64,000 bases of DNA from Octopus vulgaris (GCA_951406725.2 OX597814.1:58218001-58282000), one strand, 5' to 3'. Counted from the stretch's first letter, positions 25,216 through 63,639 are shown. Notes: a model not told the origin generated them from the letters alone. Made by a program: numbers and translations.

Positions 25216-25750
25216 AAATATATTATATTATTTCGTTGATATCGCGATTGGTTTCAGCTGCTTTACGTCCTTTTCGAAGTAAATAGCAAAATTGCTCGAA
25301 TATCGCGCTGTGACTTCCATTCCAGATAATTGCAACAACGGTGAAATAGATACCAATGCTAATTTATCGGTGCATTTGTGGAAGTCTATGTTTGTAATTC
25401 GAAACACTGCAAATACCGGTACGCATCTTTTATAGTTTGAAATATTGCTTACATTTTACTCAATCTAATATATATATATATATATATATATATATATATA
25501 TATATATATATATATATATATATATATATATATTAGAAATATATCTAAATGTCTCAACGAGACATGAGCGGTGGTGGAGCGATAGATTGGTTGTATAAAG
25601 TCAACATAACGTGACAGTCCCATAGAGGGAATTACACCACCGCTATATAGCCCTAGGAAACATCGACGCTTCCTTTCGGATTTCACACATTTCCTGTGTC
25701 CTCATGTTTGCAAAGAGGAGGCAAGCACCCCCACCAGCTAGAACTAGCAA

Positions 25751-25796
25751 CCTGGAGACATGCATGTTTCTGGGTCTTGCCCGTCGTCAGTCCAGG
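25751..25796 (-). ncRNA. Type I hammerhead ribozyme motif
   Basis: CCTGGA-CTGACGA-c-GGG-caaga-CCC-a-GAAA-CATGCATG-TC-TCCAGG: perfect 6-bp stem I, palindromic stem III (ACATGCATGT), GUC cleavage triplet. Confidence 0.85.
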
Positions 25797-25950
25797 GTAG
25801 CGTGTCCTCGCTAGCGGTGATGCTTACCAAGCCTTCGCAAATATATCTATTTACAGTGAAATTCATTCACTGGTCACCGTAATTAGAAATATTGAATTTC
25901 TAAATGTTTCAACGAGACATGAGCGGTCACCGCTAGCAAGGACACGCTAC

Positions 25951-25996
25951 CCTGGACTGACGACGGGCAAGACCCAGAAACATGCATGCTTCTAGG
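25951..25996 (+). ncRNA. Inverted copy of the hammerhead with mutated cleavage site
   Basis: Same core, but GUC has become GCU and the stem I 3' strand reads TCTAGG. Confidence 0.7.
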
Positions 25997-26348
25997 TTGC
26001 TAGTTCTAGCTGGTGGGGGTGCTTGCCTCCTCTTTGCAAATATAAGGACACAGGAAATGTGTCAAAGCCGACAGGAAACCTCGATGCTTCCTGGGGCTAA
26101 ATAGCGGTGGGTAATTCCCTCTACGGGACTGTCACGTTATGTTGACTTTATACAACCTCTCTCTCTCTCTCTCTCTCTATATATATATATATATATATAT
26201 AAAATACAGTGTATATTTAAACACGTGAGGAATCCACTCGTGGGATTCAACACGCTAGCAAGAACAGCTCGGTTCCATAACCACAAAATTAGGGACAAAA
26301 TTCGACAGGAACGAAATGAAAAAATAAAAACATTTTACCATCTAGTTA

Positions 26349-26426
26349 CCTGGACCAATTGCTTTCTGATTTTAGTTTAGCAAGTAAAATAACATATACT
26401 CGCTAGGTGAAATCGTCCTCAGCAGG
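26349..26426 (-). ncRNA. Hammerhead motif with extended stem II, inside a small element with a 36-bp inverted repeat
   Basis: CCTG-CTGAGGA-c-GATTT..TAGCGAGTA-loop-TACTTGCTA..AAATC-a-GAAA-gCAATTGg-TC-CAGG. Inverted repeat 26287-26322 / 26485-26520. Confidence 0.75.
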
Positions 26427-27060
26427 AACACCCTGGGTAAAATAAATAAACACGAGGCGAATTATGTGTCTCTTGTTTATACAGTTTTCATTTCGTTCCT
26501 GTCGAATTTTATCCCTAATTGTATAATAATAGGTATTTTGTATAATATTGCCTAATAATTTTGCTATGATGATTCTAATATATTCTTTATTCTTGTAAAA
26601 AATATCTGTATATATATATACGATCTTGTAGTGACCATAAATTAGAAATCGGTAGCTAAATATAAGACAGAAGAACGATGCAAAAACGAAATGTAACGGC
26701 GAATTGTGAAAATAATTGAAGCGCTTTTATAATCCAAAATTTCAATATTCGTTGACAGAACAACGTAACAGAGATCGTGGACACGGAACAATCGGTCCAT
26801 GTGTCGCAGAATTTACCATCTTTCTCTCTGCCTCCCTCTGCCTACATATATGAATGTATATATCGATATGTTTATATGTTTAGATCTCTCTCTCTTTATA
26901 TTGCCTATATATATATATATATATATATATATATATATATATTGTTATATTTCGGAATGGTCATTTTGCCAGTTTAGCCAATAAAAACACACGCACTATA
27001 TATTTGGTGTTACTTTGTTTCAGTGTTATTTATTTTTTACATTAATCTTAATCTTATTTC

Positions 27061-27105
27061 GGCCAGAGTTCTTTCGTCACACTCCTGTGACCGCATCAGT
27101 GGTCC
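27061..27105 (-). ncRNA. Atypical minimal hammerhead-like motif
   Basis: GGACCA-CTGATGC-g-GTCAC-aggagt-GTGAC-GAAA-GaaC-TC-TGGCC; A9 is replaced by C. Lies in a ~210-bp unit between two (TA)n runs. Confidence 0.55.
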
Positions 27106-27616
27106 TTTGTTTTCTTCTCACTTATTTGTGTCTCTCCTTACTAACCGTACTATATATATATATATATATATATATATATATATATATATATATATATATA
27201 TATATATATATATACATGGCTCTCTCTCTCTTTATATATATAGACACACACATACACACACATATGTATACTTAAATACCATCGCTCTCATATTTACTTA
27301 TAAATAATTTCACCTATTTCGTTTCTTTAAATGATGTTGGAGCACTTCAAATGAATTCTCACTCATGGTAGGGGAAAATTTTAGTAGTCGTCCATGGCAG
27401 ATTTGACTGAAGTGTATCAGGCACAATTCGAAGCTAAATTCGAAATCATGACATCTAATTAACCTGCATTTCTCACGCAGACTTGGCGGAGATAGGACTG
27501 TATTGTTGTTCATTGAATTGTTTTGTATCATGCCTGCATTAATTTTGTGACTCTTCCATGGCATAGAATATTTTGACTTCCATTTCTAGTGGTGCAGGTG
27601 CTCATATAATTCTCTT

Positions 27617-27806
27617 GTATGTATGTATGTATGTATGTATGTATGTATGTATGTATGTATGTATGTACGTATGTACGTATGTATGTATGTATGTATGTAT
27701 GTATGTATGTATGTATGTATGTATGTATGTATGTATGTATGTATGAATGTATGTATGTATGTATGTATGTATGTATGTATGTATGTACGTACGTATGTAT
27801 GTATGT
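27617..27806. repeat. (GTAT)n tetranucleotide microsatellite
   Basis: Direct reading. Confidence 0.95.
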
Positions 27807-61070: not shown

Positions 61071-61534
61071 TATATATATATTTATATATATAATGTTAGA
61101 TATAAGTTAGAAAGCTTGACACCACAAGCAAAACAATCTATCATCATCTTTGTAGGATCATACGGGATTATGAGATTAACGTTAATGGTGATGAAAACAG
61201 AGAAAGGCACTATCATGTTTTTTTCTTTTAGCGACGATTATCATGTCCCAAGGAAGGACTGTTTTTAGTGATTTAATATTCTTGGAAATGACATGCTACC
61301 GATTCCTCTTCACTTAAAATAACGTGCTTGGAACGATTACGGTTTCTAGAAATTATGCATGGGGGAGATCTAGACATATCAGAGTCGTTATATTCGGATA
61401 TCTACTTACAATATTTGCTTTGTACTTACAAAGCGGACATTACAATCTGCTCTGCGATCTTTTACTGCACAAAATAAATGGAATGACAAATATGGTGTGA
61501 AAGTATCGGGTTATTACTCTTATCGTTCTTAAAC

Positions 61535-61670
61535 GGGGCTCCCAACCACTTGGCTCCGGAGCCGATCCCACCGCGTAGCACCCAGGGAAAGTATTTTCTG
61601 ATATATTCTTTGGGCGTCCAAATCCATGTGATTGGATTTGGTTAACGGAAATTGAATGAAACCGGCGTAT
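61535..61670 (+). mobile_element. 5' half of a CORE-type SINE (3' half at 63640-63850)
   Basis: ctcccaaccacttggctccgg...cacccagggaaagtattttct...ggatttggttaacggaaattg matches the 20150 and 46345 copies. Confidence 0.65.
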
Positions 61671-61913
61671 ATATATATATATATATATATATATGTATGT
61701 ATGTATGTATGTATGTATGTATATATATATATATATATATATATATATATATATATATATATAGAGAGAGAGAGAGAGAGAGAGAGAAAATAGTAAGGAG
61801 TGAAAAAACGACAGAAGGCTTAAATGTTAAAAAATATATATATTTGCGTCAATATGTCTGAAGAATATTACAAAATTAAAAAAAAATTTTCTCTTATAAT
61901 GGCATAATTTTTA

Positions 61914-61952
61914 AAGAAAGACCGGTTTCGCGTGTAGCTTTTCAAATTTCTT
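61914..61952 (-). ncRNA. Hammerhead motif in the inverted PLE arm
   Basis: Reverse complement of 63388-63426. Confidence 0.7.
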
Positions 61953-62388
61953 GTGACGTTATGTTTATGTTGAATAGAGTTATCGTTGTGTTTATGCTCC
62001 GGAGAGTTCTAAATAAGGGAAGGTAGTGGGTGATTTCTTCCGGTGTAAGGGAGATAATCGCTTAAAAATGTTTTTCCCTTTCCCTTAATGTGAATTTCTC
62101 TGTAACAGTATGTTCGGATGGTTGAGTCTGGGCTTGTACTTTTCAATGAAGAATGTTTCCTTGTTTAGTCTAATTTGTGTTGATGATCCGAAAGCACATT
62201 GGTAAAATGGAAAGATTAACAATTGTGGTAGTAGTTGCTTTGCGCATTTCTCATGTGCTCACTACAAGGTATCATTCTATATTCTGGGAATGCAATCTGT
62301 TGTCGATGCAGTGTGCATCTACGTCTGAGTGATAGTCCCGTGGAACCCACGTAGTCTTGGTGGCAGCCCGAGCATTTTATGACATAAA

Positions 62389-63256
62389 ATTCATGCCACC
62401 CAAGACACACTAAAACAAATATCCCCTTCAACGTTGCAAGAAGGATATGCACAATAGTGTCAGAACAAAATACCAGAAACTTTAGACTGCAAGAACTCAA
62501 AAACACCCTAATTGACAGACATTACCCAGCTCAACTCATAGAGGATGGGATCAGACGTGCAACAGAAATCAACATAGAAACTTTAAGAAAAGTTCAACAC
62601 AACAACACACCTTCCCCGAAAATACTACCTTACATATCTACATACAACCCCAGAAACAAAGAAGCCTTCACCATCATCACCCAGAATTTACCAATACTTC
62701 ATAAAAACCCCAAATTAAAGGAAATTCTAAACAAACACCAAATCATTAAAAGCTACAAACAGCCTAAATCACTTAAAAAGATTCTCACAAAGGCAAAATT
62801 GTCTTCTGAAATTACGGATGCAAGAGTAAAAAAATGTGGTAGATCGAACTGTGCAACATGTCCTAACCTGCTAGAAGGATCAGAATTCCACTTTAAAGAG
62901 GGACAGAATTTCAAGATCAAATCTAACTTTACTTGTGCCTCTGAAAACATAATTTATGTCATAAAATGCTCGGGCTGCCACCAAGACTACGTGGGTTCCA
63001 CGGGACTATCACTCAAACGTAGATGCACACTGCATCGACAACAGATTGCATTCCCAGAATATAGAATGATACCTTTTAGTGAGCACATGAGAAATGCGCA
63101 AAGCAACTACTACCACACTTTTTAATCTTTCCATTTTACCAATGTGCTTTCGGATCATCAACACAAATTAGACTAAACAAGGAAACATTCTTCATTGAAA
63201 AGTACAAGCCCAGACTCAACCATCCGAACATACTGTTACAGAGAAATTCACATTAA
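62389..63256 (+). pseudogene. PLE RT thumb and GIY-YIG endonuclease, with one frameshift near 63088
   Basis: KKCGRSNCATC, NIIYVIKCSGCHQDYVGSTG, RCTLH; after the frameshift EKCAKQ...RLNKETFFIEKYKPRLN. The Cys linker resembles Neptune/Naiad-type PLEs. Confidence 0.9.
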
Positions 63257-63387
63257 GGGAAAGGGAAAAAAATTTTAAGCGTTTATCTCCCTTACACCGG
63301 AAGAAATCACCCACTACCTTCCCTTATTTAGAACTCTCCGGAGCATAAACACAACGATAACTCTATTCAACATAAACATAACGTCAC

Positions 63388-63426
63388 AAGAAATTTGAAA
63401 AGCTACACGCGAAACCGGTCTTTCTT
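63388..63426 (+). ncRNA. Minimal PLE hammerhead, U3-A8 core variant
   Basis: AAGAAA-t-TTGAAAA-GC-tacac-GC-GAAA-CCGG-TC-TTTCTT; palindromic ACCGGT; GUC triplet; located in the PLE 3' repeat, where HHRs are expected. Confidence 0.75.
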
Positions 63427-63639
63427 TAAAAATTATGTCATTATAAGAGAAAAAAATTTTTTTTTTTAATTTTGTAATATTCTTCAGACATATTGACGCA
63501 AATATATATATTTTTTAACATTTAAGCCTTCTGTCGTTTTTTCACTCTTTACTATTTTCTATATATTCACCCACGTGCTTTCAGAAACCAACTTTCTTAT
63601 CTATCTATCTATCTATATATATATATCTCTATATATATA

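Follow-up and report, generated by a model that had tools for sequence, protein, structure and literature searches.

Hammerhead ribozyme motifs at the 3' ends of Penelope-like elements and short retrozyme-like repeats in Octopus vulgaris

A 64,000-nucleotide stretch of Octopus vulgaris DNA (GCA_951406725.2 OX597814.1:58218001-58282000; hereafter the window) carries many hammerhead ribozyme (HHR) motifs, which a preliminary description had attributed to several distinct non-autonomous families mobilised by the machinery of a Penelope-like element (PLE). Having traced nine families (A to H and S) in the genome assembly, we consider the following picture quite probable. All nine bear their hammerheads at the 3' end; five continue upstream into PLE reading frames; four have no open reading frame (ORF) and were likely inserted by borrowed Penelope enzymes; and a tRNA-derived cassette in family S likely marks the 5' end of its RNA.

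Results

The window is AT-rich and microsatellite-dense and contains fragments of long interspersed nuclear elements (LINEs). A descriptor of the type-I hammerhead with a palindromic stem III, designed post hoc when the sites were already known, gave 10 matches in the window, 7 of them with a score of at least 6. In 100 local dinucleotide shuffles such scores occurred 0.31 ± 0.58 times and the count of 7 was reached in 0 of 100; the motif density is thus above that of shuffled sequence. One of the seven strong matches (61147) is a chance match inside (TA)n, and another (43305, minus strand) was absent from the preliminary list. The sites at 25751, 26349, 27061 (score 3), 30122, 34215 and 38972 were recovered, while those at 25951, 34643/34938 and 61914/63388 escaped the descriptor because the window copies are mutated or their cores variant. 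Rfam at E ≤ 1 returned no hammerhead among 60 window matches.

The sequence of each site was searched across the assembly (2.8 Gb, 227 contigs), yielding 613-2978 initial candidates per query, figures that are not to be taken as copy numbers. The commonest letters among the genome copies (16-60 per family) restored the hammerhead form; in D, for instance, they give back GAAA, and in B, G and S the palindrome. The hammerheads of the window are confirmed as predicted sequence motifs, including all nine sites and site pairs that the preliminary description had ranked as its stronger ones. Of its weaker ones, the motif at 1614 survives as a decayed copy (1490-1665, minus strand; HHR 1618-1647, U3-A8 core; 70-76% identity) of a tenth HHR-bearing family with 5 other loci. 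The pair 42989/43535 was rejected, no stem I being visible by eye in 23 copies; the motif of that element is the one at 43305.

Stem III is a palindrome in eight families, as had been proposed: ACATGCATGT in A, ACCAATTGGT in B, ACAGCTGT in D, ACGATCGT in F, ACAATTGT in G, AACGTT in S, ACATGT in H and ACCGGT in E. The exception is C, whose AGAACT is non-palindromic. By the commonest letters of their genome copies, A, B, F and H each possess a type-I hammerhead, and C, D, E, G and S possess a minimal type-I hammerhead within a pseudo-long terminal repeat (pLTR), with variant cores in C, D and E. The core variants are U3-A8 in E and at 1614, already described elsewhere (PMC4209133, in part), U4C in D, A9C in C and U3-G8 in most copies of H; family E also has an additional U where stem I joins the core. 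In predicted dimer folds, stem III would form between the two molecules for A, H and E, and not for the window copies of S and C.

Two further observations concern hammerheads elsewhere. A CUGAUGA...GAAA core without clear stems lies at 36120-36156 (minus strand) and has no relatives among the loci fetched. In a scan of every third locus, at least 6 further hammerhead families with palindromic stem III appeared in the flanks of loci L004, L147, L199, L299, L332 and L397.

Judged by their sequence, five of the nine traced families (C, D, E, G and S) are truncated ends of ORF-bearing PLEs, because longer genome copies continue upstream of the terminal repeat into frames for a reverse transcriptase (RT) with a GIY-YIG endonuclease at the C-terminus. 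The sites represent five different PLEs, 27061 belonging to C, 30122 to D, 38972 to G, 34643/34938 to S and 61914/63388 to E. In E, 29 of 30 loci had a PLE protein match within 1.5 kb, and in C 9 of 20; longer stretches bore out the presence of both domains in these two families. Within the same distance, the first samples gave none at 20 B, 20 D, 15 H and 30 S loci, and one each at 30 A, 15 F and 15 G loci, all of them unlinked relics. The 5' ends of D and G copies fade gradually, and a second genome search, started from their 5'-most shared sequence, led upstream to Nematis-like frames at 11 of 25 loci for G and 4 of 25 for D. Once upstream sequence had been seen to hold ORFs, D and G were rejected as non-autonomous elements and S as a stand-alone tRNA-type short interspersed nuclear element (SINE).

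Pfam RT matches were obtained for S (3e-10), E (7e-5) and C (6e-4) and a Pfam GIY-YIG match only for E (0.006), whereas the coding identity of D and G comes from tblastn to a natural PLE frame of 727 amino acids. A cysteine linker precedes the endonuclease in the C, E and G proteins and is lacking in the S protein. The clade names Poseidon, Nematis and Neptune are our presumptive assignments, given by motif resemblance and not by a tree.

In the window, family C (26941-27148, minus strand) is a solo 3' end from an ORF-bearing PLE that is very young, at 99% identity; its HHR at 27066-27099 has the A9C core and the non-palindromic stem III. Family D is a 5'-truncated 3' untranslated region (UTR) and pLTR of a Nematis-like PLE (29456-30481, plus strand) with a 3' UTR of ~2.3 kb, a short 5' inversion and an HHR (30126-30244) with the U4C core and a loop II of ~100 nt. 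Family G is the corresponding 5'-truncated part of a second Nematis-like PLE (38347-39095, plus strand; inverted tail 38347-38437, HHR 38976-39053). Family E is a 5'-truncated PLE (61787-63597, plus strand) in which an RT-thumb/GIY-YIG frame (62388-63253) is followed by a variant HHR (63395-63420, plus strand) and a tail of ~38 nt at the right end; its inverted arm (61787-62388), without tail, has the other variant HHR (61920-61945, minus strand).

Other PLE sequences were noted beside these. A decayed RT/endonuclease relic at 39944-41019 (minus strand) is unlinked to family G, and an inverted pair at 44640-45021 that resembles family C in its 3' end and tail (72-76% similarity) is probably another PLE end. 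Outside the window, a very young Nematis-like PLE (loci L302 and L300-L329) has intact 727-amino-acid frames, a 1.25-kb 3' UTR and its own hammerhead; 58 of its best 150 matches are 100% identical to the query, which would make it a suitable supply of active protein. Yet another PLE, at L154:3300-5186 (minus strand), bears a hammerhead-like motif with altered core at its 3' end, and similar ends occur in the flanks of L028 and L205.

Families A (sites 25751/25951), B (26349), F (34215) and H (42.9-43.7 kb) likely have no reading frame, as judged from 15-60 loci per family. A, B and H consist of circularly permuted or tandem units of 346, 470 and 547 nt, respectively, in tandem or partial-tandem organisation. 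Among genome-order copies, a pattern match placed the unit start directly downstream of the tail end in 25 of 30 for A and 24 of 30 for B, inspection by eye adding a few more, and the same join is present at 8 of 15 H loci. Upstream runs shared between copies do not exceed 243 nt for A or 425 nt for B, except in one duplicated A pair, and one H array comprises 7 units spaced 547-549 nt. Family F differs: none of 30 copies shows a tail-to-start join or tandem organisation, and in all 30 the 5' end falls within ~8 nt of one position, preceded only by (TA)n, inverted arms or unrelated flank.

Stem covariation, counted in H, was found there: 99.3% of hammerhead pairs are kept in 17 distinct copies and 4 pairs (17 cells) have changed on both sides, a level reached in 0 of 500 shuffles. 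The copies are related, which inflates the test, keeps it from being a probability and detracts from its weight. Circular folds predicted for the units gave z values of -8.0 (A), -4.8 (B) and -1.4 (H) against 25 shuffles.

Family A forms an inverted pair in (TA)n (25532-26169), with a minus arm (25532-25872) that has a tail of ~57 nt and an intact HHR (25757-25790), and a plus arm (25927-26169) without tail whose HHR (25957-25989) is damaged. The 5'-truncated B copy (26199-26520, minus strand) has its HHR core at 26353-26422 and a short inverted piece at 26485-26520. Family F, an element of ~250-330 nt, lies at 34174-34417 (plus strand; HHR 34218-34275); we take its fixed 5' end, 34174-34185, to resemble a Pol II initiator (TCATTG). 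Family H spans 42944-43740 (minus strand) as 1.3 tandem units plus a short inversion, with the covarying HHR at 43257-43305. An F-like tail fragment was also seen at 31627-31715 (minus strand).

In each of the nine families, copies terminate at one of two discrete 3' positions; we call the stretch between them the tail. Its length is ~57 nt in A, ~100 in B, ~58 in C, ~172 in D, ~38 in E, ~75 in F, ~105 in G, ~125 in H and 30-35 in S; the second end of H was taken from individual loci, and overlap with TA was corrected by eye at the short ends. Among 69 inverted insertions with both arms, the tail was on exactly one arm in 65, on both in 2 and on neither in 2. One-arm tails account for 24 of 28 such insertions in A, B and F and for 41 of 41 in the coding families, where an inverted, 5'-truncated arm and a tail at one end are found in C, D, E, G and S alike. 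The set of 69 leaves out H, and a few of its loci are the same insertion seen from both ends, which takes something from its force. PLE tails of 30-40 bp, often at one end only, are on record (Craig et al., PMC8557442, in part), and the tail has been identified with the interval that separates two internal RT start sites (Frangieh et al., PMC11167929).

Adjacency to (TA)n, which had been stated for most sites, holds for eight families, with (TA)n adjoining the 3' end in 156 of 165 copies against a background of 12%, and fails for S, where just 3 of 30 copies show it. S inserts outside (TA)n with target-site duplications of ~7-13 nt: of 33 two-armed copies, 19 have at least 7 nt in common across their ends, 2 of these through boundary errors, against 6% of mismatched pairs. 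A zinc-finger linker has been proposed to direct (TA)n targeting (PMC8557442, in part); the presence of a cysteine linker in C, E and G and its absence from S agree with that role. No poly(A) or LINE tail was seen on copies of A, B or H. Since the retrozyme-like units share two-site 3' ends, one-arm tails and 5' inversions with the coding PLEs, PLE machinery likely moved them, and PLE mobilisation of every family tested is, as read from these footprints, well supported. That part of the original proposal stands, as probably does the non-autonomous nature of A, B, F and H; C, D, E, G and S, being coding, fall outside it.

Family S consists in the window of a sense arm (34593-34862, minus strand), a tRNA-derived head with A and B boxes (34863-34936, minus strand) in the pLTR of a Penelope/Poseidon-like PLE, and an inverted second arm (34937-35071, plus strand) joined at the head's first base. 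The sense arm holds a (TAA)n tract, the start of the PLE reading frame, an HHR (34647-34682) and a 3' end without tail; the second arm has a truncated HHR (34937-34970) and a tail of ~34 nt (35029-35062). In longer copies the head begins 32 nt past the stop codon; after it come (TAA)n, the start codon, the hammerhead and the tail. The endonuclease C-terminus immediately precedes the tRNA-like head at locus L227, at 29 of 30 loci retrieved with the S endonuclease the sequence continues into the head or the linker, and S parts are present at 22 of 25 retrieved with the S RT. At locus L551, a full-length S, the tail continues as the N-terminal coding region of the ORF. No separate non-coding master element was found for S; the entire unit is the pLTR of the coding element. 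None of 9 tail-ORF junction matches showed a clean 5' pLTR, and 5 had body sequence right after the tail.

The exact S hammerhead pattern occurs 2811 times in the genome. No frame longer than 569 amino acids was present among the best 150 S RT matches, and other assemblies contain proteins 54-71% identical to the S protein. The family seems old and is perhaps silent. At L280, an inverted S pair of 3.1 kb was rejected as a PLE carrier, as it contains a LINE fragment and another repeat and no PLE ORF; a short S 3' fragment was noted at 2020-2078 (plus strand).

The 74-nt head aligned to host tRNAs (25 distinct sequences) with a score of 57, against 27 ± 5 and a maximum of 44 in 500 shuffles, and its best match was a tRNA-Arg in 30 of 40 cases. 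The A box was found in 25 and the B box in 30 of 40 full heads. Copies tend to begin at this head. Genome-order sampling gave 30 copies whose head start is intact; 12 of them begin at 0 to -3 and 12 at -4 to -7, so that 24 start within 7 nt of the head, and 6 continue upstream. Exact 25-mers number 1395 at +1..+25 and 358 at -20..+5; unlike this step, ORF-linked copies fade across 290-1100 nt. In a second sample of 81 arms from 50 loci, 25 ends fell at -12..+4, 21 within the head and 8 upstream (3 of them fold-backs), and 27 arms were without head. TTTT is missing from the 2349-nt body of L551 and from its commonest-letter columns, the latter built from 1-4 copies over the first 600 nt. Elsewhere it averages 0.33 per kb in S copies and 2.0-3.4 per kb in three LINE stretches, and four other PLE ORFs contain 4-16 runs.

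Among the other repeats of the window is a long LINE (12102-17462, minus strand; Pfam RVT_1 2e-29, zf-RVT-like C-terminus), with related pieces at 52545-54060, which we presume by its motifs to be RTE-like. Two CR1-like LINE copies (58300-61050 and 23738-25213, both plus strand) share 70% identity, and a common tRNA-type SINE is present in more than 10 copies, including 31322-31626, 33600-33841, 39165-39469 and 54607-54815.

Discussion

By analogy with the Anolis Poseidon element studied in vitro (PMC11167929), the PLE protein would nick both target strands and begin cDNA at two internal RNA sites in all nine families, and most cDNAs would halt early to leave solo ends. Because the tail runs directly into the unit start, A, B and H were likely copied from multimeric or circular RNA, which dimeric hammerhead cleavage is predicted to reduce to unit length. 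Their (TA)n targeting suggests drivers of the Neptune or Nematis type bearing a zinc-finger linker. The RNA of S would start at the tRNA cassette, most simply by the action of RNA polymerase III (Pol III), and would yield a SINE-like population of thousands of short copies whose driver is identified; the cassette likely marks the RNA 5' end because it lies between the stop and the next start codon and most copies begin there.

That A, B, F and H might, like the other five, be truncated ends of autonomous PLEs, leaving no non-autonomous elements at all, is an idea with some appeal: it is true of five of nine families, D, G and S seemed ORF-less until traced upstream, and Cervera and de la Pena take most solo minimal hammerheads as truncated PLEs (PMC4209133, in part). 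We nevertheless regard it as improbable, since the tail meets the unit start too closely for an ORF to fit between them in 25 of 30 copies of A and 24 of 30 of B, where shared upstream runs, one duplicated A pair apart, stay within 243 and 425 nt, and since H forms a seven-unit array and F keeps one 5' end in 30 of 30. Less probable again is a spread of A, B and H as DNA satellites or through a LINE with the hammerheads as passengers; H does form tandem arrays and LINE RTs abound in the window, yet the copies are dispersed, end at two fixed 3' positions and show the inverted arms and one-arm tails of coding PLEs without a poly(A) or LINE tail. As for the PLE at 61.8-63.6 kb, put forward as the driver, we give hardly any credence to its having moved all the small elements as distinct non-autonomous families. 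Family E does have (TA)n targeting and the tail signature in common with A, B, F and H, but C, D, G and S possess ORFs of their own, S differs in target preference, and no 3'-end similarity links E to other families, or any families to each other, at E<0.01.

The preferred view, of borrowed Penelope enzymes acting on hammerhead-bearing RNAs, has several points to its debit. The deviating cores (U4C, A9C, U3-G8, extra U) might fail to cleave, and 8 of 9 Xenopus retrozyme dimers did fail (10.64898/2026.07.22.740005). A search for autonomous partners of A, B, F and H came back negative: the 3' ends showed no similarity across the 9 families, nor to ORF-linked ends at 265 loci. F, or H (for which there is no genome-order sample), could have a rare long form, a thought prompted by the late discovery of ORFs in D, G and S.

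For family S the rival is a head passively captured from a SINE into a pLTR driven by Pol II, with the pile-up of 5' ends due to cDNA fold-back at TGCCC-AC-GGGCA or to a coincident Pol II start; we put its chances at somewhat below even. In known PLEs the pLTR does house an internal promoter along with a start site (PMC8557442, in part), and the 12 ends at -4 to -7, half of the 24 head-starting copies, are mostly fold-back hairpins at this motif, which a cDNA strand switch could also yield. In three unstranded RNA-seq runs from one study with the same species label (10351, 7404 and 6910 S reads), neither read starts nor read ends accumulated at the head or at the cleavage site, with loose ends at 1507 in the mapping; the depth rise at the head, ~2-3-fold, is within the 4-fold DNA step and follows the copy profile of the DNA. 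ARAGORN made no call anywhere in the window, and Rfam recognised no tRNA at three S loci. In L551 the shortage of TTTT is modest (P 0.01 by mononucleotide, 0.025 by dinucleotide and 0.09 by synonymous-codon comparison), and in most shorter S copies it is not significant. All of this speaks against a Pol III promoter. On the other side, a 5-bp hairpin would need to halt ~75-80% of cDNAs, 12 of the 24 ends, at 0 to -3, lack the hairpin, and passive capture leaves unexplained the intact A and B boxes at tRNA spacing and the TTTT-free body. That the cassette is an internal Pol III promoter is the simplest reading, with about even odds as the sequence stands. Bolder, and on balance doubtful, is the proposition that S is transcribed end to end by Pol III from a captured tRNA promoter, with a frame free of TTTT and cap-free translation, shedding thousands of SINE-like copies as it goes.

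PLE hammerheads and a PLE origin of retrozymes have been published, and most of our finding is a dense example of known PLE biology. Endonuclease-bearing (EN+) PLEs with minimal hammerheads in their pLTRs (PMC4209133 and, in part, PMC8557442) resemble C, D, E, G and S in RT with C-terminal GIY-YIG, a palindromic-stem-III hammerhead, the bulge after A9, the U3-A8 variant, inverted 5'-truncated arms and the one-end tail, and also in (TA)n targeting where the zinc-finger linker is present. They differ, in the reports as far as cited, in that tails here run from ~30 to 170 nt by family rather than 30-40 bp, and that D and G have 3' UTRs of 0.8-2.3 kb and a loop II of 50-100 nt. Metazoan non-LTR retrozymes (PMC7229834, in part; 10.64898/2026.07.22.740005) share with A, B and H the lack of an ORF, the type-I hammerhead and (partial-)tandem units of a few hundred bases, whereas B (470) and H (547) exceed the 170-400-nt retrozyme circles and F is not tandem. 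Their use of PLE machinery was proposed from co-occurrence and pLTR homology (same sources); A, B, F and H go beyond that case in showing PLE two-site tails, and the inversion signature, on the insertions themselves.

Anolis carolinensis Poseidon (PMC11167929) is like S in a frame running through HHR and tail, two internal RT start sites and AT-rich targets; a tRNA-derived segment goes unmentioned there and lies in S just upstream of the start codon, at the commonest 5' end. Cassandra, Helenus and Ajax (PMC10886601, in part) likewise carry small-RNA-derived sequence within a terminal repeat, but they are non-autonomous LTR elements and S is the pseudo-LTR of a coding PLE. The SMalpha and Sjalpha repeats of Schistosoma have a tRNA-related Pol III head. 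Like S they are SINE-like with a type-I hammerhead; the accessible part of their description (PMC8490949) names no driver, whereas the S sequence is the terminal repeat of an ORF-bearing PLE. A search of the open literature, covering mostly titles and the beginnings of abstracts, with Repbase, Dfam and subscription journals outside it, found no tRNA-derived promoter in a pLTR and no Penelope-driven SINE.

In conclusion, two results go beyond known biology: retrozyme-like families without an ORF bear the insertion footprint of PLEs, and the pLTR of family S contains a tRNA-derived cassette. The question of what enzymes mobilise animal retrozymes has until now been debated from co-occurrence and homology. 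Here A, B and F carry the PLE footprint (24 of 28 insertions) beside five coding PLEs of the same genome, H has two 3' ends, and the mapped 3' ends name the RNA sites at which a PLE protein would initiate. As a caution, short hammerhead repeats should not be called non-autonomous before 1-3 kb upstream has been traced. To our knowledge, it is Pol II or Pol I that transcribes coding retrotransposons. If the tRNA cassette of S is a Pol III promoter, it would be an exception to that view and would provide a SINE-like family with a known Penelope driver; and if the element is indeed transcribed by Pol III throughout, S would be a SINE and its driver in one, a route for the birth of Penelope-dependent SINEs.

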